From assembly GCF_003790525.1 (NCBI RefSeq), contig NZ_CP033635.1: a stretch of 64,000 nucleotides of DNA. One strand, 5' to 3'. A model generated the notes under the pieces. It did not search any database. It was not told the origin of the DNA and worked only from the letters and a program-made list of their open reading frames with translations. This document shows, in pieces, positions 3,280-12,102 of this stretch. Source of the stretch: Escherichia coli (GTDB lineage: Bacteria > Pseudomonadota > Gammaproteobacteria > Enterobacterales > Enterobacteriaceae). A program made the translations under genes and the position numbers. How positions within the stretch are numbered: position 1 is the stretch's first letter; each line of letters begins with the position of its first letter.

Positions 3280-5262
3280 TTAACGGCTCTGCTTTCTCAA
3301 CAAATAGATAAAATATGGCGCGCCGATAAAGGTCGACAGCAGCCCCGCCGGGATCTGGAATGGAAACAATACCATCCGCCCACACCAGTCAGCGAACACC
3401 AGCAGTAAACCACCCACCAGCGCCGAAATTACGATGTGTGGCATCGTCCGTCGAAAGCCCATCATCCGCGCAATATGCGGTGCCATTAAACCAACAAAAC
3501 TCAACGGTCCAATGGTCATTGTCGCAGTCGCTGTCAGGCAAGCCGCTAACAGCAGCAGCGCAATTCGCGTCGGCGTCAGCGCCATTCCTACGGCTCGTGC
3601 GGTATCACCGCCCAGCGGTAAAATGGTCAGCCAGCGGCGGCACAGCGGGGTAATCGCCAGCAAAATTACCATCACAATTCCCGTGCGCCAGACCTGCGCC
3701 TCGGTCGCGTTGTAGGTCGAACCGGAAATCCAGGTCAGAACTTGCGCCATTCGCGGGTCACCACTTGCCTGCAACATCATCAAAAGCATGGTGAACGCGG
3801 TACTTAACGCCATCCCCGCCAGTAACATGCGGTGTGGGGAAAATCCACCGCGTCCGGCGGCGATCATAATGATCAACAGCGTCACCGCCGCCCCGAGGCT
3901 GCCCGCGGGTAACAGCCAGCCAAAGGCATTACCCGGCACCAAAAACAGCATCAACACCACACCAAACGCCGCGCCGGAACTAATCCCCAGCACTTCCGGG
4001 CTTGCCATCGGGTTTCCGGTCAGCCGCTGAATAATACAGCCCGCCACTGCCAGCATGATGCCCGCAAACAGTGCCGCCATAATTCGCGGCCAGCGCCAGG
4101 GCATTAAATCATCGAGCAGCGCCCCGCTCGCCCACGTCCAGCCGTGCGCATCACGACCAAACGACAGCGCCACCACCACAGCCATCAACAGCAGCACGCC
4201 GCCCGCGAGGGCAAACGCCAGCACGTGTTGGCGTTCAGTCTCGACACGATCGTTGACCTTCATATCCGGCGCGCTAATGCTGCGTAAACGCGGCAGCAAC
4301 CACAGTAGCAGCGGCGCACCGATCAACGCAGTGACCGAACCGGTGGACACTTCCATCCACACGCGAGTCAGCCAGAGGATGATTTGATCGGAAAGCCAGA
4401 GGATCAGCGCACCAATCAGCGACGCCAGCATCAACCTTGGTAGCAGACGCCGCGCCCCCAGCATTTTCGCCAGCAGTGGCGCGAACAAACCGATAAAGCC
4501 GATAATCCCCACCGCGTTCACCAGCAGCGCACTGATGACAATCGCCAGCGACAACGCCGCCAGACGCGCCAGCGACAAGGCCAGCCCGAGATTGCGCGCC
4601 ACTCCATCATCAAGCCCCATCAGAGTTAACGGGCGAAGTAGCAATAACGTCAGCATCACGCCGCCCAGCAGCTGCGGCCATAAACGCTCAACGCCGCCCC
4701 AGTCGGTTTGCGTCAGCGTTCCGGTGCTCCACAGGAACATGCTTTGCAGTTGGTCATGATGGAAGATAACCAGTAACTGATTGATTGCGCCGCAATAAAG
4801 GCTCACTACCAGCCCCGCGAGGATCAGCGTTACCGGCGAAAGCCGTTTCCCCCACGCGACGCCAAAGACGATTAAGCCAACCACACAAGCCCCTGCCAAT
4901 GCAGCAAACTGGCTCGCCATAGCACCTGGGATCGCCCAGAGCGTGGTGACGGTAATCCCCAGTTGCGCGCCTGTTGCAACGCCCAACGTCGTCGGTTCCG
5001 CCAGCGGGTTACGCAGCACTTGCTGAAACAGCACGCCCACCAGCCCCAGGCCCGCGCCCACCAGCAGCGAAATCGCCAGACGCGGCAACAAGCTGTAGTG
5101 AAAAATCATCTGCTCGATGACGTCAATATCCGGCGACCAGGCGGCCTGCGCCCACTGGCTGCGCGGCAGCGCCTGCGAGAAGTTCATCCAGGTCAACGCC
5201 GCAGCAGCAACCACCAGCAGCACCAGCAATAACACCGGAAAAAGCGCAATTCGTTTACTCAC
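3280..5262 (-). CDS. fhuB: Ferric hydroxamate ABC transporter permease FhuB
   Basis: 660-aa duplicated-permease ORF; GTG start overlaps fhuD stop (GTGA). Confidence 0.9.
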   Translation of the reverse strand: MSKRIALFPVLLLVLLVVAAAALTWMNFSQALPRSQWAQAAWSPDIDVIEQMIFHYSLLPRLAISLLVGAGLGLVGVLFQQVLRNPLAEPTTLGVATGAQLGITVTTLWAIPGAMASQFAALAGACVVGLIVFGVAWGKRLSPVTLILAGLVVSLYCGAINQLLVIFHHDQLQSMFLWSTGTLTQTDWGGVERLWPQLLGGVMLTLLLLRPLTLMGLDDGVARNLGLALSLARLAALSLAIVISALLVNAVGIIGFIGLFAPLLAKMLGARRLLPRLMLASLIGALILWLSDQIILWLTRVWMEVSTGSVTALIGAPLLLWLLPRLRSISAPDMKVNDRVETERQHVLAFALAGGVLLLMAVVVALSFGRDAHGWTWASGALLDDLMPWRWPRIMAALFAGIMLAVAGCIIQRLTGNPMASPEVLGISSGAAFGVVLMLFLVPGNAFGWLLPAGSLGAAVTLLIIMIAAGRGGFSPHRMLLAGMALSTAFTMLLMMLQASGDPRMAQVLTWISGSTYNATEAQVWRTGIVMVILLAITPLCRRWLTILPLGGDTARAVGMALTPTRIALLLLAACLTATATMTIGPLSFVGLMAPHIARMMGFRRTMPHIVISALVGGLLLVFADWCGRMVLFPFQIPAGLLSTFIGAPYFIYLLRKQSR

Positions 5263-6149
5263 GCTTTACCTCCGATGGCGTTATCCAGAATACGCACAAA
5301 GTGCATTGCAGAAAGCGTCGCACCATAGAACCAGACCGCCGGAACGCGCTGAAAGCGTCCGGCGCGGACAAACGGCATGGCCTGCCACAGCGGGGTTGCC
5401 ATTAGGGTGTCCATGTCTTTGCTGTTGTCGTGATCAAAACAGAGCACATCAACGTCTTTATACGCTGCCAGACGATCGATACTGACAGCGGTACTGCCCC
5501 AGAAGTTGGTTTCCCCTTGCCAGGCATTTGGGATGCCGTACTCATCAAGAATTTCCTGGAACAGGCTGTTTGGACCGAAGACCAACATATGGCGCGGATC
5601 GATAAGTGTCGTCAGCAATAACGGGCGTGCACCACGCTTCACAAAGCGGGGTTTCATGCTGCGGATAAAGTCTTCATAGTGCGCTAAATGCGTTTCTGCT
5701 GCGCTTTGCAGGTTAAGTAAATCTGCCATTTCCGTCAGTGATTTACGCGCCATCGCCAGCGGCTGTTTGCCATCGCTGAAGTTAAATCCGCGCCCCGGCG
5801 CAATGCGTGCCAGCATTTCTGGTGAAGGGCCATATCCTGCCGACCAGACCATAAACGATGGTTTCATTTCGGTCAGCAGTTCAAGGTTAGGTTCTGTGCG
5901 CAAACCGACGTCGATCACTGAGTCCGGCAATGGTGGTTCGCTGACCCACAGGCGATAGTTGATGGTATCCGCCACGCCGTAAGGCACGATGCCGAGCGCC
6001 AGCAGTAATTCCACCGGCAACCACTCCAGCGCCACAATACGATTGGGATCAATAGCCGCCGCGTGGGCGGTATTCATCTGCCATAACAACGGAGAAAGCG
6101 CCATCGCCGTTAACAGTCGACGGCGCGAAATAAGAGGTAAGCCGCTCAT
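5259..6149 (-). CDS. fhuD: Ferric hydroxamate periplasmic binding protein FhuD
   Basis: ORF MSGLPLISRRRLL...; ATG overlaps fhuC stop (ATGA); start chosen at second Met to give 296 aa. Confidence 0.88.
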   Translation of the reverse strand: MSGLPLISRRRLLTAMALSPLLWQMNTAHAAAIDPNRIVALEWLPVELLLALGIVPYGVADTINYRLWVSEPPLPDSVIDVGLRTEPNLELLTEMKPSFMVWSAGYGPSPEMLARIAPGRGFNFSDGKQPLAMARKSLTEMADLLNLQSAAETHLAHYEDFIRSMKPRFVKRGARPLLLTTLIDPRHMLVFGPNSLFQEILDEYGIPNAWQGETNFWGSTAVSIDRLAAYKDVDVLCFDHDNSKDMDTLMATPLWQAMPFVRAGRFQRVPAVWFYGATLSAMHFVRILDNAIGGKA

Positions 6150-6946
6150 CAATAAACAAAACTCACAGGTGCAGCACCCGCCGGATGCGGCAAAATACCC
6201 ATCGGGATGCCATAAATCATTTCAAGGGTTTCGCCGCGCATAATTTCCGCAGGCGTTCCCTGAGCAATCATTTCACCACCGCGCAGGGCGACCAGATAAT
6301 CACAGTAGCGTGCCGCCATATTGATATCGTGCAACACGGCAATGACCGTCAGGCCACGCTCCTGACTTAAACGGTGCACCAGCGCCAGCACATCAACCTG
6401 GTGGGCGATATCCAGCGCCGAGGTCGGTTCGTCGAGCAACAGACAACGGCTATCCTGTGCCACCAGCATAGCGATCCACGCCCGCTGACGTTCGCCGCCA
6501 GAGAGACTATCGACCAGCCGATGCGCCAGCGGTTTTAAGCCAACCAGCGAAATCGCCTCTTCGACCTTTTCGCGATCTGCCGCACCAAAGCGCCCCAGTG
6601 CGCCATGCCACGGGTAACGACCAATCGCCACCAGTTCACGCACGGTCATCCCTTCTGCCGGAGGAAGCTGCTGCGGCAAATAAGCCACTTTGCGGGCAAA
6701 CGCTTTGCTGCTCCAGCTTTCCAGCGGCTGGGCATCAAGGAGAATCTCCCCTTCCGACGGTGGCTGGTGACGACCAAGCATTTTGAGCAGAGTGGATTTA
6801 CCAGAACCGTTGTGACCAATCAGACCGGTCACTTTCCCGGCAGGAAAGGTTAACGACAGCGGATGCAAAAGCGTGCGCCCGGGCACACGAAAGGAGATAT
6901 TACGCAGTGCAAAAGTGGTATCGGAATGATTCGTGTATTCCTGCAT
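6149..6946 (-). CDS. fhuC: Ferric hydroxamate ABC transporter ATPase FhuC
   Basis: Walker A GHNGSGKST and LSGGERQR signature; start trimmed to MQEYTNHSDTTF (265 aa). Confidence 0.9.
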   Translation of the reverse strand: MQEYTNHSDTTFALRNISFRVPGRTLLHPLSLTFPAGKVTGLIGHNGSGKSTLLKMLGRHQPPSEGEILLDAQPLESWSSKAFARKVAYLPQQLPPAEGMTVRELVAIGRYPWHGALGRFGAADREKVEEAISLVGLKPLAHRLVDSLSGGERQRAWIAMLVAQDSRCLLLDEPTSALDIAHQVDVLALVHRLSQERGLTVIAVLHDINMAARYCDYLVALRGGEMIAQGTPAEIMRGETLEMIYGIPMGILPHPAGAAPVSFVY

Positions 6947-6996
6947 AACAGCCAACTTGTGAAACGGGCACGGAAATCCGTGCCCCAAAAGAGAAA

Positions 6997-9255
6997 TTAG
7001 AAACGGAAGGTTGCGGTTGCAACGACCTGACGTTCTGCGCCCCAGAAGCAGCCATAGGTGTTAAAGCAGCTGGCGACGTATTCACGATCGAACAGGTTGT
7101 TGACATGCAGCGCCACGTTGGAGCCAGCCATGCCGACTCGCGCCAGATCATAACGCACTAACGCATCCACGACCGTATAACTTCCCACTTTAAAGGAGTT
7201 AGCCGGATCACCATAGCTGGAGCCAGTATAACGACCACCGGTGCCCAGCGTCAGACCTGAAAGCGGACCGTCAAAGAAGGTATAGTCAGCCCACAGCGAA
7301 GCCATGTGTTTTGGCACCTGTGCAGGCGTATTGCCTTTATAGGTAGTGTCGGTGGTGTATTCCGCATCGGTGTAAGTATAAGAACCTACTACGTTAACAC
7401 TCGCCGACAGCGCCGCTTTTGCTTCCAGTTCTACACCACGAGCGCGAATCTCACCGCCTTCAATCGAGAAATTGGGATTATTCGGATCCGCCATCAGGTT
7501 GTTGGTTTTGGTAAGCTGATACAGTGCGCCCGTCAGCACAATTGGGCGATCTTCCGGCACATATTTCACACCAACTTCATACTGTTTGCCTTTCGAAGGT
7601 GCAAACAGATCACCGTTTGCATCTGTCAAAGATGCTGGCTCAAACGACTCACTGTAGCTGAAGTAAGGCGTTACCCCGTTGTCGAACAGGTAGTTTACGC
7701 CACCACGCCAGGTGAACTGTTTGTCATCACGATCGGATTTATTACCGTAATCACGGTTGAAAGATGACTGTTCCGCCCAGTCATAGCGACCACCCAGAGT
7801 CACCAGCACCTTATCCCACTGCGCCTGATCCTGAACATACAGACCGGTTTGTTTCTGTTTAAGCAAAACGCGGTATGGGCCAGACGGATCCGGGTGAGCA
7901 CCAAAATCAAAGTCACTACGGTCTAAATTATAGATATCAGACGGTGCAACGGAACCGGCGTAACCGAACCAGGAGTCAATATCATTACGCATACGCATAA
8001 AGTCAACGCCGGTCAGCAGAGTGTGTTCAACCGAGCCGGTTGCGAATTTACTTTGCAACTGAGTATCAACAGAGAAGTTTTCTAATTTCTCATTATCGAT
8101 AACGTACTGACGAGTCAGTGTATGATTCCATTCTGACTGCGGGATACTTAAACATGGACTCGCCTTGAGTGCATCGTCGTCTTTGGTATACAGCGGATCC
8201 GAGCACATGCCGTAGCCATATACGCTCTTTTGCGAGACTTTATTTTGCGCAAAGCGCAGGTTCTGACGCACAGTAAAGGTGTCGTTAAATTCGTGATCGA
8301 AGCTGTAGCCCACCATCTTCTCATTACGAGAATAGGTGTTGTTCTTCGCCCCTTCATTAAAGTCTGTCGGCAGACGCTTACCGTTCGGCAGCGGCTCAAC
8401 GGTTCCCTCTTTCGGCAACCAGCCGTAATAACCGGTTTCCGGTTCGTTCTGGAAGTAAGAAAGGAAAGTGAAATTGGTTTTATCATCCGGGCGCCAGGTG
8501 AACGCTGGAGCAATAGCATAACGCTGCTCTTCTGCCCCCTTCTGCTGAGCATTGGCTGAACGCGCAATACCAGTCAGACGATAAGAGTAAACGCCGTCAT
8601 CATCCAGCGCATCACTGAAGTCAAAACCAGTCTGGAACAGGCTGTCAGTACCGGCTTTAAACTGAATTTCTTTCAGCGGTTCTGTAGTCGGGCGCTTGCT
8701 GACCATGTTCAACAGGCCGCCAGGGCTGCTTTTCCCGTACAGCACGGATACCGGACCACGCATGATTTCAGCGCGCTCCAGCATATACGGATCGATAACT
8801 GCATCGTTATAGAAGTTGCCCTGCATCTTCAGGCCATTCAGATAGTTGTTCTGGCTTTGGCCGTCAGCGGCAAATCCGCGGATGATCAGGTAATCGTAAG
8901 TGTTGGATGCGCCACGAGTTCCCACGGCAACGCCAGGAGTGTAGCTAAGAGCTTCTTTTACCGACTTCGGCTGATGCAGCGCCATCTCTTCGGCGGTCAC
9001 AACAGAAATAGACTGTGGCACTTTTTGAATCGGCGTATCGGTTTTAGTGCCGGTAGCGGACTGTCGCGCCGCAATAGTTGCAGCTGGCCCCCATGCGCTT
9101 TCTTGCGGCGCAGGTGCAGCGGTAACGGTGATAGTGTCTTCTTTCGGTTCAACCGCTGCCTGTGCATAAACAGACATGCCGCTAACCGCTGTGGCTACTA
9201 CAACTGCGATTTTACGCAGTGAGTGTTTTGGCTGAGCAGTTTTGGAACGCGCCAT
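6997..9255 (-). CDS. fhuA: TonB-dependent ferrichrome outer membrane receptor FhuA (divergent allele, 752 aa)
   Basis: N-terminus MARSKTAQPKHSLRKIAVVVATAVSGMSVYAQA and C-terminal TonB-dependent receptor motif ...ATATFRF. Confidence 0.9.
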   Translation of the reverse strand: MARSKTAQPKHSLRKIAVVVATAVSGMSVYAQAAVEPKEDTITVTAAPAPQESAWGPAATIAARQSATGTKTDTPIQKVPQSISVVTAEEMALHQPKSVKEALSYTPGVAVGTRGASNTYDYLIIRGFAADGQSQNNYLNGLKMQGNFYNDAVIDPYMLERAEIMRGPVSVLYGKSSPGGLLNMVSKRPTTEPLKEIQFKAGTDSLFQTGFDFSDALDDDGVYSYRLTGIARSANAQQKGAEEQRYAIAPAFTWRPDDKTNFTFLSYFQNEPETGYYGWLPKEGTVEPLPNGKRLPTDFNEGAKNNTYSRNEKMVGYSFDHEFNDTFTVRQNLRFAQNKVSQKSVYGYGMCSDPLYTKDDDALKASPCLSIPQSEWNHTLTRQYVIDNEKLENFSVDTQLQSKFATGSVEHTLLTGVDFMRMRNDIDSWFGYAGSVAPSDIYNLDRSDFDFGAHPDPSGPYRVLLKQKQTGLYVQDQAQWDKVLVTLGGRYDWAEQSSFNRDYGNKSDRDDKQFTWRGGVNYLFDNGVTPYFSYSESFEPASLTDANGDLFAPSKGKQYEVGVKYVPEDRPIVLTGALYQLTKTNNLMADPNNPNFSIEGGEIRARGVELEAKAALSASVNVVGSYTYTDAEYTTDTTYKGNTPAQVPKHMASLWADYTFFDGPLSGLTLGTGGRYTGSSYGDPANSFKVGSYTVVDALVRYDLARVGMAGSNVALHVNNLFDREYVASCFNTYGCFWGAERQVVATATFRF

Positions 9256-9294
9256 TGGTATATCTCTGATGTAAAGTGAATGATAACGTAAACG

Positions 9295-9327
9295 AGAATG
9301 ATTATTATAAAGATAAGATAATATTCG
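9295..9327. promoter_or_regulatory. Candidate Fur box in fhuA promoter region
   Basis: GAGAATGATTATTATAAAGATAAGATAATATTC; first 19 nt match Fur consensus GATAATGATAATCATTATC at 13/19 positions. Confidence 0.5.
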
Positions 9328-9474
9328 AAACGCTGGCGGGTTCGCAAGCGGTACGCAATCTGAGCGTTCCTGAAGGGTTAATAAACAACCAGATGAAAAG
9401 AAAGGGTTAATACTTTAGGTGGGATGTTATTTTACCGGATGGCTACTCGCCATCCGGTATGTCACGCTTAGACG

Positions 9475-12009
9475 TTAATTACTACCAAACATATCCTTGA
9501 TCCAACCGGCTACACCGTCGCTGTCTTTCTGCTCTTGCTGAGCAGGTTGCTGTTGCGGCTGTTGCTGCGGCTGAGAAGACTGATCAAACGGATTGCCTGA
9601 CGGCTGCTGCTGCATCTCACTCTGCTGGCACAGCGATTGCGGATCGCTGGTCCAGACCGGCAAGACACGCATACCACCGCTGCAAACAAAGTTGCCGTCG
9701 TAGTCCACGCCCATATCTGCAATATCTTCCGGCGGAACAAGATTCAGCGGTGTTGGCGTCTGGTTAGCCAGATAACGCTGATAAATCGACATTGCCCCGC
9801 TGGCTCCATACAGTTTGGTCGGTTGGTTGTTATCACGGCCTACCCAGGTGATGGTCACCGTGCTGCCGTCAATGCCCGCAAACCAGGTATCTACGTTATT
9901 GTTGGTAGTTCCTGTTTTCCCTGCCAGATGCAGGTTCGGGTATTTCGCCCCAAGCTGACGCCCCGTACCACGTTGTACCACCTGCTGCATGGTCCATAGT
10001 GTCAGATACGCCGCCTGCGCCGGAACCGCGCGTTCCGCCTGCGGGAAGCTCTGATACAGCACTTTGCCATCTTCCGCAATTACCGAACGCAGCGCAGAAA
10101 GCGGTGCACGGTTACCGCCGCTGGCGATAGTCTGGAATGCCTGCGCCACTTCGATTGGCGTTAAGTTCAACGCCCCCAGCAGCATCGCCGGAACCGGATG
10201 CAGCTGATCTTTCGGCACGCCCAGTTTAATCCAGGTCTCCGTAACCGCAGGCAGCCCCAGCGCCATCCCCAGATTCACCGTCGGCACGTTCATCGAACGG
10301 GTCAACGCATCCACCAGCATCACTCTGCCACTTTCGCTATAACGACGGTCATCGTTCTGCGGTGACCAGACCTGGCCATTCGGCTGACGCAGCGCGATGG
10401 GCGCATCGGCAATCCACGTGTTCAGGCGATAGATTTTCGGCTGGCTTAAGGCAGTCAGATAAGTCGCTGGTTTTGCGAGGGAACCAATCGAACGACGCGC
10501 CTGCATCGCACGGTTGTAGCCCGCAAACTGCGGCTCAGAACCACCGACCATCGCACGAACTTCACCGCTAAAGCGGTCAACAACCACAATCGCGGTTTCA
10601 AGATCGCTCAACTTACGCTGTTTTTTCAGTGCCGGAATGCCTTCCACGGCGGCTTTTTCTGCCGCGTCCTGGGCCACCGAGTCAAAGGTAGTGAAGATCT
10701 TCACGCCGGAGAGATCTTTTACCTTATCGCCTAATTTAGCCTGAAGCTCCTGGCGCACCAGTTGCATAAAGGCTGGCTGAGGAGAGATCACCCCACCGCG
10801 CGGCTGAACACCCAGCGGACGTGCACTCAACATGTCATAGAGTTCTTGATCAATAATCTGTTGCTGTTGCAGCAGACGCAGTACCAGGTTACGTCGCTCC
10901 AGCGCCAGTTTCGGGTTACGCCACGGGTTGTAGATGGACGCCCCTTTCACCATACCCACCAACAGCGCCTGCTGATCGAGGCTCAATTCTTCTACCGGGC
11001 GACCAAAGTAATACAAGCTCGCCAGCGGGAAGCCGCGGATTTCGTTGTCGCCGCTCTGACCGAGATACACCTCGTTCATATACAGCTCAAGAATACGGTC
11101 TTTGCTGTAACGCGCGTCCATGATCAGCGCCATGTAGGCTTCGTTCGCTTTACGCCAGTAAGAACGCTCGCTGGAGAGGAACAGGTTTTTAACCAACTGT
11201 TGCGTCAGCGTACTCGCCCCCTGCACCGTGCGTCCGGCAGTCAGGTTTGCCAGCACCGCACGTCCGATTGAGTAGAGACTGATCCCATCATGCTCGTAGA
11301 AATGACGGTCTTCTGTCGCCAGCAAAGTATCCACCAGCAAATCCGGGAAACCACTGCGCGGCACAAACAGACGCTGCTCACCGTTTGGTGAAGAGATCAT
11401 AGTGATCAGGCGCGGATCAAGACGGAAGAAACCGAACTGACGGTTGTTCTCCATATTGACGATCGTCGCCAGATGATCGCCATCAAAGGTCAGACGTGCA
11501 CGCACCTGCCCTTCTTTACTGTCCGGGAAATCAAACGGACGGCGGATCATCTCAATGCTGTTGGCCTGCACGGTAAATTCGCCAGGACGGGTCATTTTCG
11601 ACACCTGACGATACTGGGTCGCCTCCAGCAGATTCACCATCTCGTTCTTGCTGATGGTCATGTCTGGCTCAAGGTTGACCATCCGGCCATAAACTGCCGC
11701 GGGCAGTTGCCAGACCTTGCCATCAATACGGCTGCGAATTTTTTGATCGAGATAAACGCCGTAAATGGCGATCAGCACGGCAAAAACGATAGCCAGTTTT
11801 AGCAGCAGCCATAGCCAGCCGCGTTTGCCACGAGGCTTACGCCCTTTGCCTTTGCCCTTACCTTTGCGCGGCATCGGTTCTTCATCCTCATAGTCATCAT
11901 AATCGTCGTAATCATCGTCATCTTCGTAACGACGACGGCTTACCTTTTGTTTGACCGGACGCGTCGGTTTCCCTTTGCGTCCAATTGGCTCGCGGTCATT
12001 CCCGGCCAT
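9475..12009 (-). CDS. mrcB: Penicillin-binding protein 1B (bifunctional transglycosylase/transpeptidase)
   Basis: [16 protein letters not shown]...[15 protein letters not shown]... 844 aa from the Met chosen; track ORF extends 5 codons upstream. Confidence 0.9.
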
Positions 12010-12102
12010 GCTTTTTCTCCGCAATATTCAGGCGCAAAAGCCCGATTTTCTGTTCTTCTGTTGCAAGACAGAAGAAGATATCTCTCAAATTTACTTTGAT
12101 CT

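Follow-up and report, generated by a model that had tools for sequence, protein, structure and literature searches.

The AT-rich stretch upstream of fhuA in an Escherichia coli genome is very probably the known Fur operator of the fhuACDB promoter

Does the AT-rich stretch that precedes fhuA in this Escherichia coli genome place the ferrichrome uptake genes under Fur control, and which part of the stretch carries the Fur sites? These questions were addressed in a single window, the whole stretch of DNA that was analyzed (64,000 nucleotides of RefSeq assembly GCF_003790525.1, contig NZ_CP033635.1, numbered from its first nucleotide). Here the fhuACDB operon lies on the minus strand, as does its upstream neighbor mrcB (9475-12024), and the 219-bp intergenic region between mrcB and fhuA (9256-9474) contains the flagged AT-rich stretch. 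The matrix, promoter, conservation and literature evidence presented below identifies this stretch, very probably, as the Fur operator already known from the fhuACDB promoter of E. coli. The genes and the stretch in question are:

6997-9255, minus strand: fhuA, the regulated gene (752 amino acids; NCBIfam FhuA equivalog, 1448 bits)
3280-6988, minus strand: fhuC, fhuD and fhuB, the remaining genes of the operon (NCBIfam equivalogs)
6149-6988, minus strand: fhuC (NCBIfam equivalog; profile match starts at ORF residue 15)
5259-6152, minus strand: fhuD (NCBIfam equivalog)
3280-5262, minus strand: fhuB (NCBIfam equivalog)
9294-9326, plus strand: the 33-mer GAGAATGATTATTATAAAGATAAGATAATATTC singled out by the preliminary description, located by its sequence and antisense to fhuA

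The equivalog matches of fhuA, fhuC, fhuD and fhuB establish that the regulated genes have a role in iron acquisition. Phages T1, T5 and phi80, colicin M and albomycin also use FhuA as their receptor. Several fhuA alleles occur among E. coli genomes, and the one found here encodes 752 amino acids as opposed to the 747 implied by the K-12 gene coordinates. A preliminary description of the locus had proposed that the 33-mer, placed at 9295-9327, is a Fur-box-like sequence upstream of fhuA. The sequence is present and does lie upstream of fhuA; its position, however, was off by one nucleotide, and the strand quoted is the antisense one, as fhuA is on the minus strand.

That proposal was built on overlapping GATAAT-type hexamers and on a match to the Fur consensus at 13 of 19 positions, and both observations were reproduced. 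Six hexamers with at least five of six matches begin within the 33-mer (at 9294, 9300, 9301, 9304, 9312 and 9317), compared with a window average of 0.42 per 33 nt, and the segment 9294-9312 matches the 19-bp consensus GATAATGATAATCATTATC at 13 of 19 positions on the plus strand and at 14 of 19 as the reverse complement. Counting consensus mismatches nevertheless proved too weak a test for Fur, as 25 other window positions match at 13 or more of 19; in total, a match of 13/19 or better occurs at 26 positions and one of 14/19 or better at 12, GAT-repeat sequences among them, and those of the other matches (at least 13/19) whose context was examined fall within genes. In comparison with the classical 19-bp "iron box" GATAATGATAATCATTATC of aerobactin iucA and other Fur-repressed promoters, the fhuA site shares the overlapping GATAAT-type hexamers and the location at an iron-uptake operon, over the core promoter, whereas its match to the box (13-14/19) is only moderate and its informative register is shifted by 3 bp.

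We scored the window with a symmetric, 19-bp Fur matrix built from 17 K-12 Fur sites, with fhuA left out. The training sites were the strongest-site coordinates given in Table 4 of Chen et al. 2007 (NAR 35:6762, PMC2189734), re-located in NC_000913.3 with the stated distance to the gene start verified for each; the independence of the matrix is imperfect in that these sites had been ranked by Chen's model, whose 24 training sites included fhuA. The highest score among the approximately 64,000 positions of the 64-kb window, 20.6 bits, is centered at 9300 (9291-9309) and falls within the range of the 17 training sites scored with the same matrix (19.1-29.3 bits), in keeping with the proposal of a Fur box. 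The exact tail probability of 20.6 bits is 6.5e-8 per position, which corresponds to approximately 0.004 expected occurrences per window. When the intergenic region was dinucleotide-shuffled 5000 times, one shuffle reached this score, and none did in 5000 shuffles of its AT-rich 60-bp core. The runner-up in the window (15.5 bits, 50701-50719) lies inside aceF, and a match of 11.8 bits (48920-48938) lies between aceF and lpdA, about 105 nt ahead of the latter gene; no evidence of function was found for either. The parts of the operator are:

9291-9309, minus strand: main Fur dimer site, a 9-1-9 inverted repeat with the sense sequence TATAATAATCATTCTCGTT (20.6 bits; center 9300, equivalent to K-12 167439)
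9297-9315, minus strand: second, weak overlapping Fur site (center 9306, 6 bp upstream of the main site; 5.0 bits)
9285-9315: 31-bp Fur site cluster known from K-12 (putative extent, based on three site centers and on the three sites in 31 bp of Chen et al. 2007)

A spacing of 6 bp is the typical geometry of Fur clusters (Chen et al. 2007, PMC2189734). Overlapping sites at 3- or 6-bp spacing were sought accordingly, and the matrix scores at centers 9294, 9300 and 9306 are -0.1, 20.6 and 5.0 bits, respectively, such that an overlapping site is present 6 bp upstream of the main site while the position 6 bp downstream is close to zero. The register in which the consensus match had been described, a 19-mer centered at 9303, receives -5.5 bits from the 9-1-9 matrix. 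The negative value is no contradiction because the classical 19-mer consists of two overlapping 7-1-7 / 9-1-9 sites whose centers lie 3 bp to either side. Read in the 7-1-7 register, the fhuA site (TAATAAT-C-ATTCTCG) agrees with TGATAATNATTATCA at 12 of 15 positions.

Published work on K-12 bears directly on this operator. The window and K-12 MG1655 share every base from 9413, 158 bp upstream of the ATG, into fhuA (window position = 176739 - K-12 coordinate), and farther upstream the two differ by six substitutions near the mrcB end. In K-12, Chen et al. 2007 (PMC2189734, Table 4) list a 31-bp fhuA Fur cluster of three sites, located at -45 relative to the ATG, with the strongest site at 167439 (19.5 bits), and purified Fur at 150 nM gel-shifted an oligonucleotide carrying the K-12 fhuA site. 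The operator described here corresponds to that cluster without any difference, having the same center (9300 = 167439) and the same -45 distance. A fhuA promoter-lacZ fusion was repressed by Fur and derepressed without it (Beauchene et al. 2015, PMC4676285), and the Fur-2 iModulon includes fhuA, fhuC and fhuD (Gao et al. 2023, PMC10164565). The fhuA promoter of Klebsiella pneumoniae CG43 was reported to be negative in a Fur titration assay, although expression rose when fur was deleted (PMC4169559). No Fur DNase footprint on fhuA was found in the readable literature, where the evidence for binding is the oligonucleotide gel shift. The matrix score, promoter position, K-12 identity and conservation were thus computed here, while Fur binding in vitro and Fur-dependent expression are drawn from the literature. 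Iron regulation of fhuA, as first suggested from the hexamers, is supported by the matrix, the promoter position, the identity to K-12, and the published binding and repression.

A scan of one genome per species yielded 67 distinct fhuA loci, of which the 60 with a match from residue 1 were analyzed over 300 nt upstream each. The best Fur-matrix match was located at -44 to -49 from the ATG in every one of these 60 Enterobacterales ortholog loci, with scores of 11.2-20.8 bits (at least 15 bits in 54), and the core of the box reads ATAATAAT-N-ATTCTCGTT or ATTATCGTT. It is the Fur-informative positions that do not vary among the 60 species. Identity to the window averages 0.88 for the main box, 0.62 for the upstream half of the 33-mer, where positions 9310-9317 are poorly conserved, and 0.51 for the remaining intergenic sequence. 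Conservation alone is not Fur-specific, because the adjoining downstream block in the 5' UTR is equally conserved and coincides with a HypT site. Of 5426 complete E. coli genomes, 5421 contain the 45-mer 9286-9330, 4134 of them as an exact match; sampled variants change the central base from C to A, which is uninformative, affect 9315-9316 outside the main site, or, in one isolate, lack 5 bp in TATTAT. In some E. coli, such as AVS0578, a fimbrial protein gene rather than mrcB lies directly upstream of fhuA, and similarity to the window ends approximately 80 bp upstream of the Fur box, indicating that a rearrangement or insertion abuts the promoter.

The placement of the operator relative to the promoter depends on the following elements:

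9342-9347, minus strand: -35 hexamer TTGCGA (consensus promoter scan; conservation)
9318-9323, minus strand: -10 hexamer TATTAT (promoter scan; conserved; 7 nt upstream of the Cappable-seq start)
9311, minus strand: main transcription start (Cappable-seq K-12 167428, mapped via the identical K-12 sequence)
9304-9309, minus strand: TATAAT, which would be the -10 hexamer for the database-derived start 9297 (inside the main Fur site)

Two start sites have to be weighed. The Cappable-seq data of Ettwiller et al. 2016 (PMC4782308, supplementary file 1) contain a strong MG1655 start at 167428 (relative read score 31.4, log2 enrichment 3.2) and a minor one at 167477, with no start at K-12 16743x-16745x in the MG1655 table. 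The other start follows from Jo et al. 2019 (PMC6397515), whose start and -10/-35 boxes come from Huerta & Collado-Vides 2003; their HypT sites are numbered +7 to +21 and -111 to -97, and therefore +1 corresponds to 9297 (K-12 167442). A consensus scan of the fhuA strand returned TTGCGA-18 bp-TATTAT as the only promoter-like site, and in the comparison of the 60 orthologous loci, at least 44 of 61 sequences hold TTGCNA and TATTAT at a constant spacing of 18 bp. The TATAAT hexamer is without a credible -35 partner, reads CATAAT in most other species, and lies at a distance from TATTAT that varies from 6 to 9 bp across species. Together, Cappable-seq and conservation across 60 species favor the start at 9311 with TATTAT as its -10 hexamer over the database-derived 9297. 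In E. coli SC407, a 5-bp deletion (ATATT) at aligned positions 9319-9323 removes most of TATTAT and leaves the Fur box and TATAAT intact, so that this isolate offers a natural test of which promoter is used for fhuA. The PfhuA expression system, for its part, uses a Vibrio cholerae promoter.

Comparison with the mapped fhuA promoter, which the preliminary description had put forward as a check, places the Fur site on the promoter with either start: the main site spans +3 to +21 relative to 9311 or -12 to +7 relative to 9297, and the 31-bp cluster spans about -4 to +27 of the start at 9311. The working fhuA promoter is probably TTGCGA/18 bp/TATTAT initiating at 9311, with Fur on +3 to +21 and not on the -10 hexamer, or else tandem promoters lie under one Fur array. 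The Fur operators of fepA, cirA, fiu, fecA and fhuE, which like fhuA encode TonB-dependent receptors, yield similar scores with the same matrix (19-24 bits) and share the same logic of repression by promoter occupancy. The fhuA main site differs from these in lying just downstream of the measured start (+3 to +21) and not over the -35 and -10 hexamers, a difference in placement that depends on which start site is accepted.

The original suggestion of a Fur box within the 33-mer holds for its downstream part, which overlaps the site at 9291-9309, and is not supported for its upstream half (9310-9326), where the matrix score is negative. This distinction bears on an alternative that we regard as unlikely, namely that the Fur array is longer, filling the whole 33-mer and beyond with GATAAT-like units from 9282 to 9322 and covering the TATTAT -10 hexamer as well. 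Such an array is suggested by the GATAAT-like hexamers at 9282, 9294, 9300, 9312 and 9317, the last of which is a perfect GATAAT (9317-9322) overlapping the -10 hexamer, and by Chen et al. 2007 (PMC2189734), who describe clusters and remark that Fur footprints often exceed single sites in length. However, matrix scores at centers 9309-9324, across the upstream half of the 33-mer, fall to between -10 and -40 bits, positions 9310-9317 vary among species, the -10 role of TATTAT accounts for its conservation, and Chen's own cluster spans only 31 bp.

A second alternative holds that the conserved block serves mainly another regulator, either HypT, a hypochlorite-responsive LysR-type regulator, or IscR as in Klebsiella. 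Two sequence elements are relevant:

9277-9291, minus strand: proximal HypT footprint sequence TTACGTTATCATTCA (Salmonella footprint, Jo et al. 2019, PMC6397515; identical here and highly conserved)
9394-9408, minus strand: distal HypT-site equivalent AACCCTTTCTTTTCA (differs at one position from AACCCTTCCTTTTCA, footprinted in Salmonella by Jo et al. 2019, PMC6397515)

The Salmonella HypT footprints include TTACGTTATCATTCA, which abuts and overlaps the box at 9291-9277, together with the distal site at 9408-9394, and IscR binds upstream of K. pneumoniae fhuA (PMC4169559). These HypT and IscR sites lie beside the main 19-mer or farther upstream and are distinct from it, Jo et al. 2019 (PMC6397515) themselves depict the Fur box as a separate element flanked by the two HypT sites, and the Zur and MntR consensus sequences have no match at the box; we consider it very improbable that the block is conserved mainly for a regulator other than Fur. 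Zur (GAAATGTTATAATATAACATTTC) and MntR operators were rejected as candidates, their best intergenic matches being 14/23 and 13/22, respectively, away from the box and equaled at 41 and 97 window positions. Farther upstream, a conserved block on the minus strand, TTAACCCTTTCTTTTCATCTGGTTGTTTATTAACCC (9375-9413), holds the distal HypT footprint equivalent and coincides with -154 to -130 from the ATG, the position of the reported type 2 IscR box of Klebsiella fhuA (PMC4169559).

The least credible alternative, that the Fur match is a mere by-product of an AT-rich core promoter with no specific Fur function, draws on the 82% A+T content of the 33-mer, on its inclusion of both TATTAT and TATAAT and on the 13/19 consensus matches elsewhere in the window, but can be dismissed on the failure of any AT-rich-core shuffle to reach 20.6 bits, a score within the range of proven sites, the gel shift and Fur-dependent expression published for K-12, whose sequence is identical, and the invariance of the Fur-informative positions in 60 species in which the T that opens TATAAT is mostly C.

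The remainder of the intergenic region was also surveyed. Directly 3' of the mrcB stop, a hairpin on the minus strand (9433-9459) has a perfect 11-bp stem, a dG of -24 kcal/mol and a z-score of -5.3, and its sequence is poorly conserved across species. In a terminator scan, no intrinsic terminator was called downstream of mrcB on the minus strand; the hairpin went uncalled because it is followed by AAAAUAAC instead of a U-run. No Rfam family matched the intergenic region or the 5' UTR, the only Rfam match in the window being the tp2 sRNA family at 53606-53719 on the plus strand (103 bits).

With the stretch read as the Fur operator of fhuACDB, a mechanism of control can be outlined. When iron is sufficient, Fe2+-Fur dimers would occupy the overlapping site cluster at approximately 9285-9315, which would cover the transcription start, the early transcribed region and the alternative TATAAT hexamer. 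Fur bound to DNA needed by RNA polymerase would then block initiation, presumably by steric exclusion. When iron is scarce, Fur would be released and the ferrichrome receptor and its ABC transporter would be made. With either start site, the DNA held by RNA polymerase in the open complex would include the operator, and repression by occupancy is therefore the natural mechanism to propose. The exact extent of Fur protection at fhuA is one that we infer.

The fhuA Fur operator is already known, and no new biology follows from its presence here. What the analysis offers as a by-product is a cleaner anatomy of the fhuA promoter, in which the sole mildly new point is the preference for a start at 9311; this start differs from the one used in some recent papers and changes the position of Fur relative to RNA polymerase. 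For the organism, the finding means that the standard iron control of ferrichrome uptake is retained in this strain.
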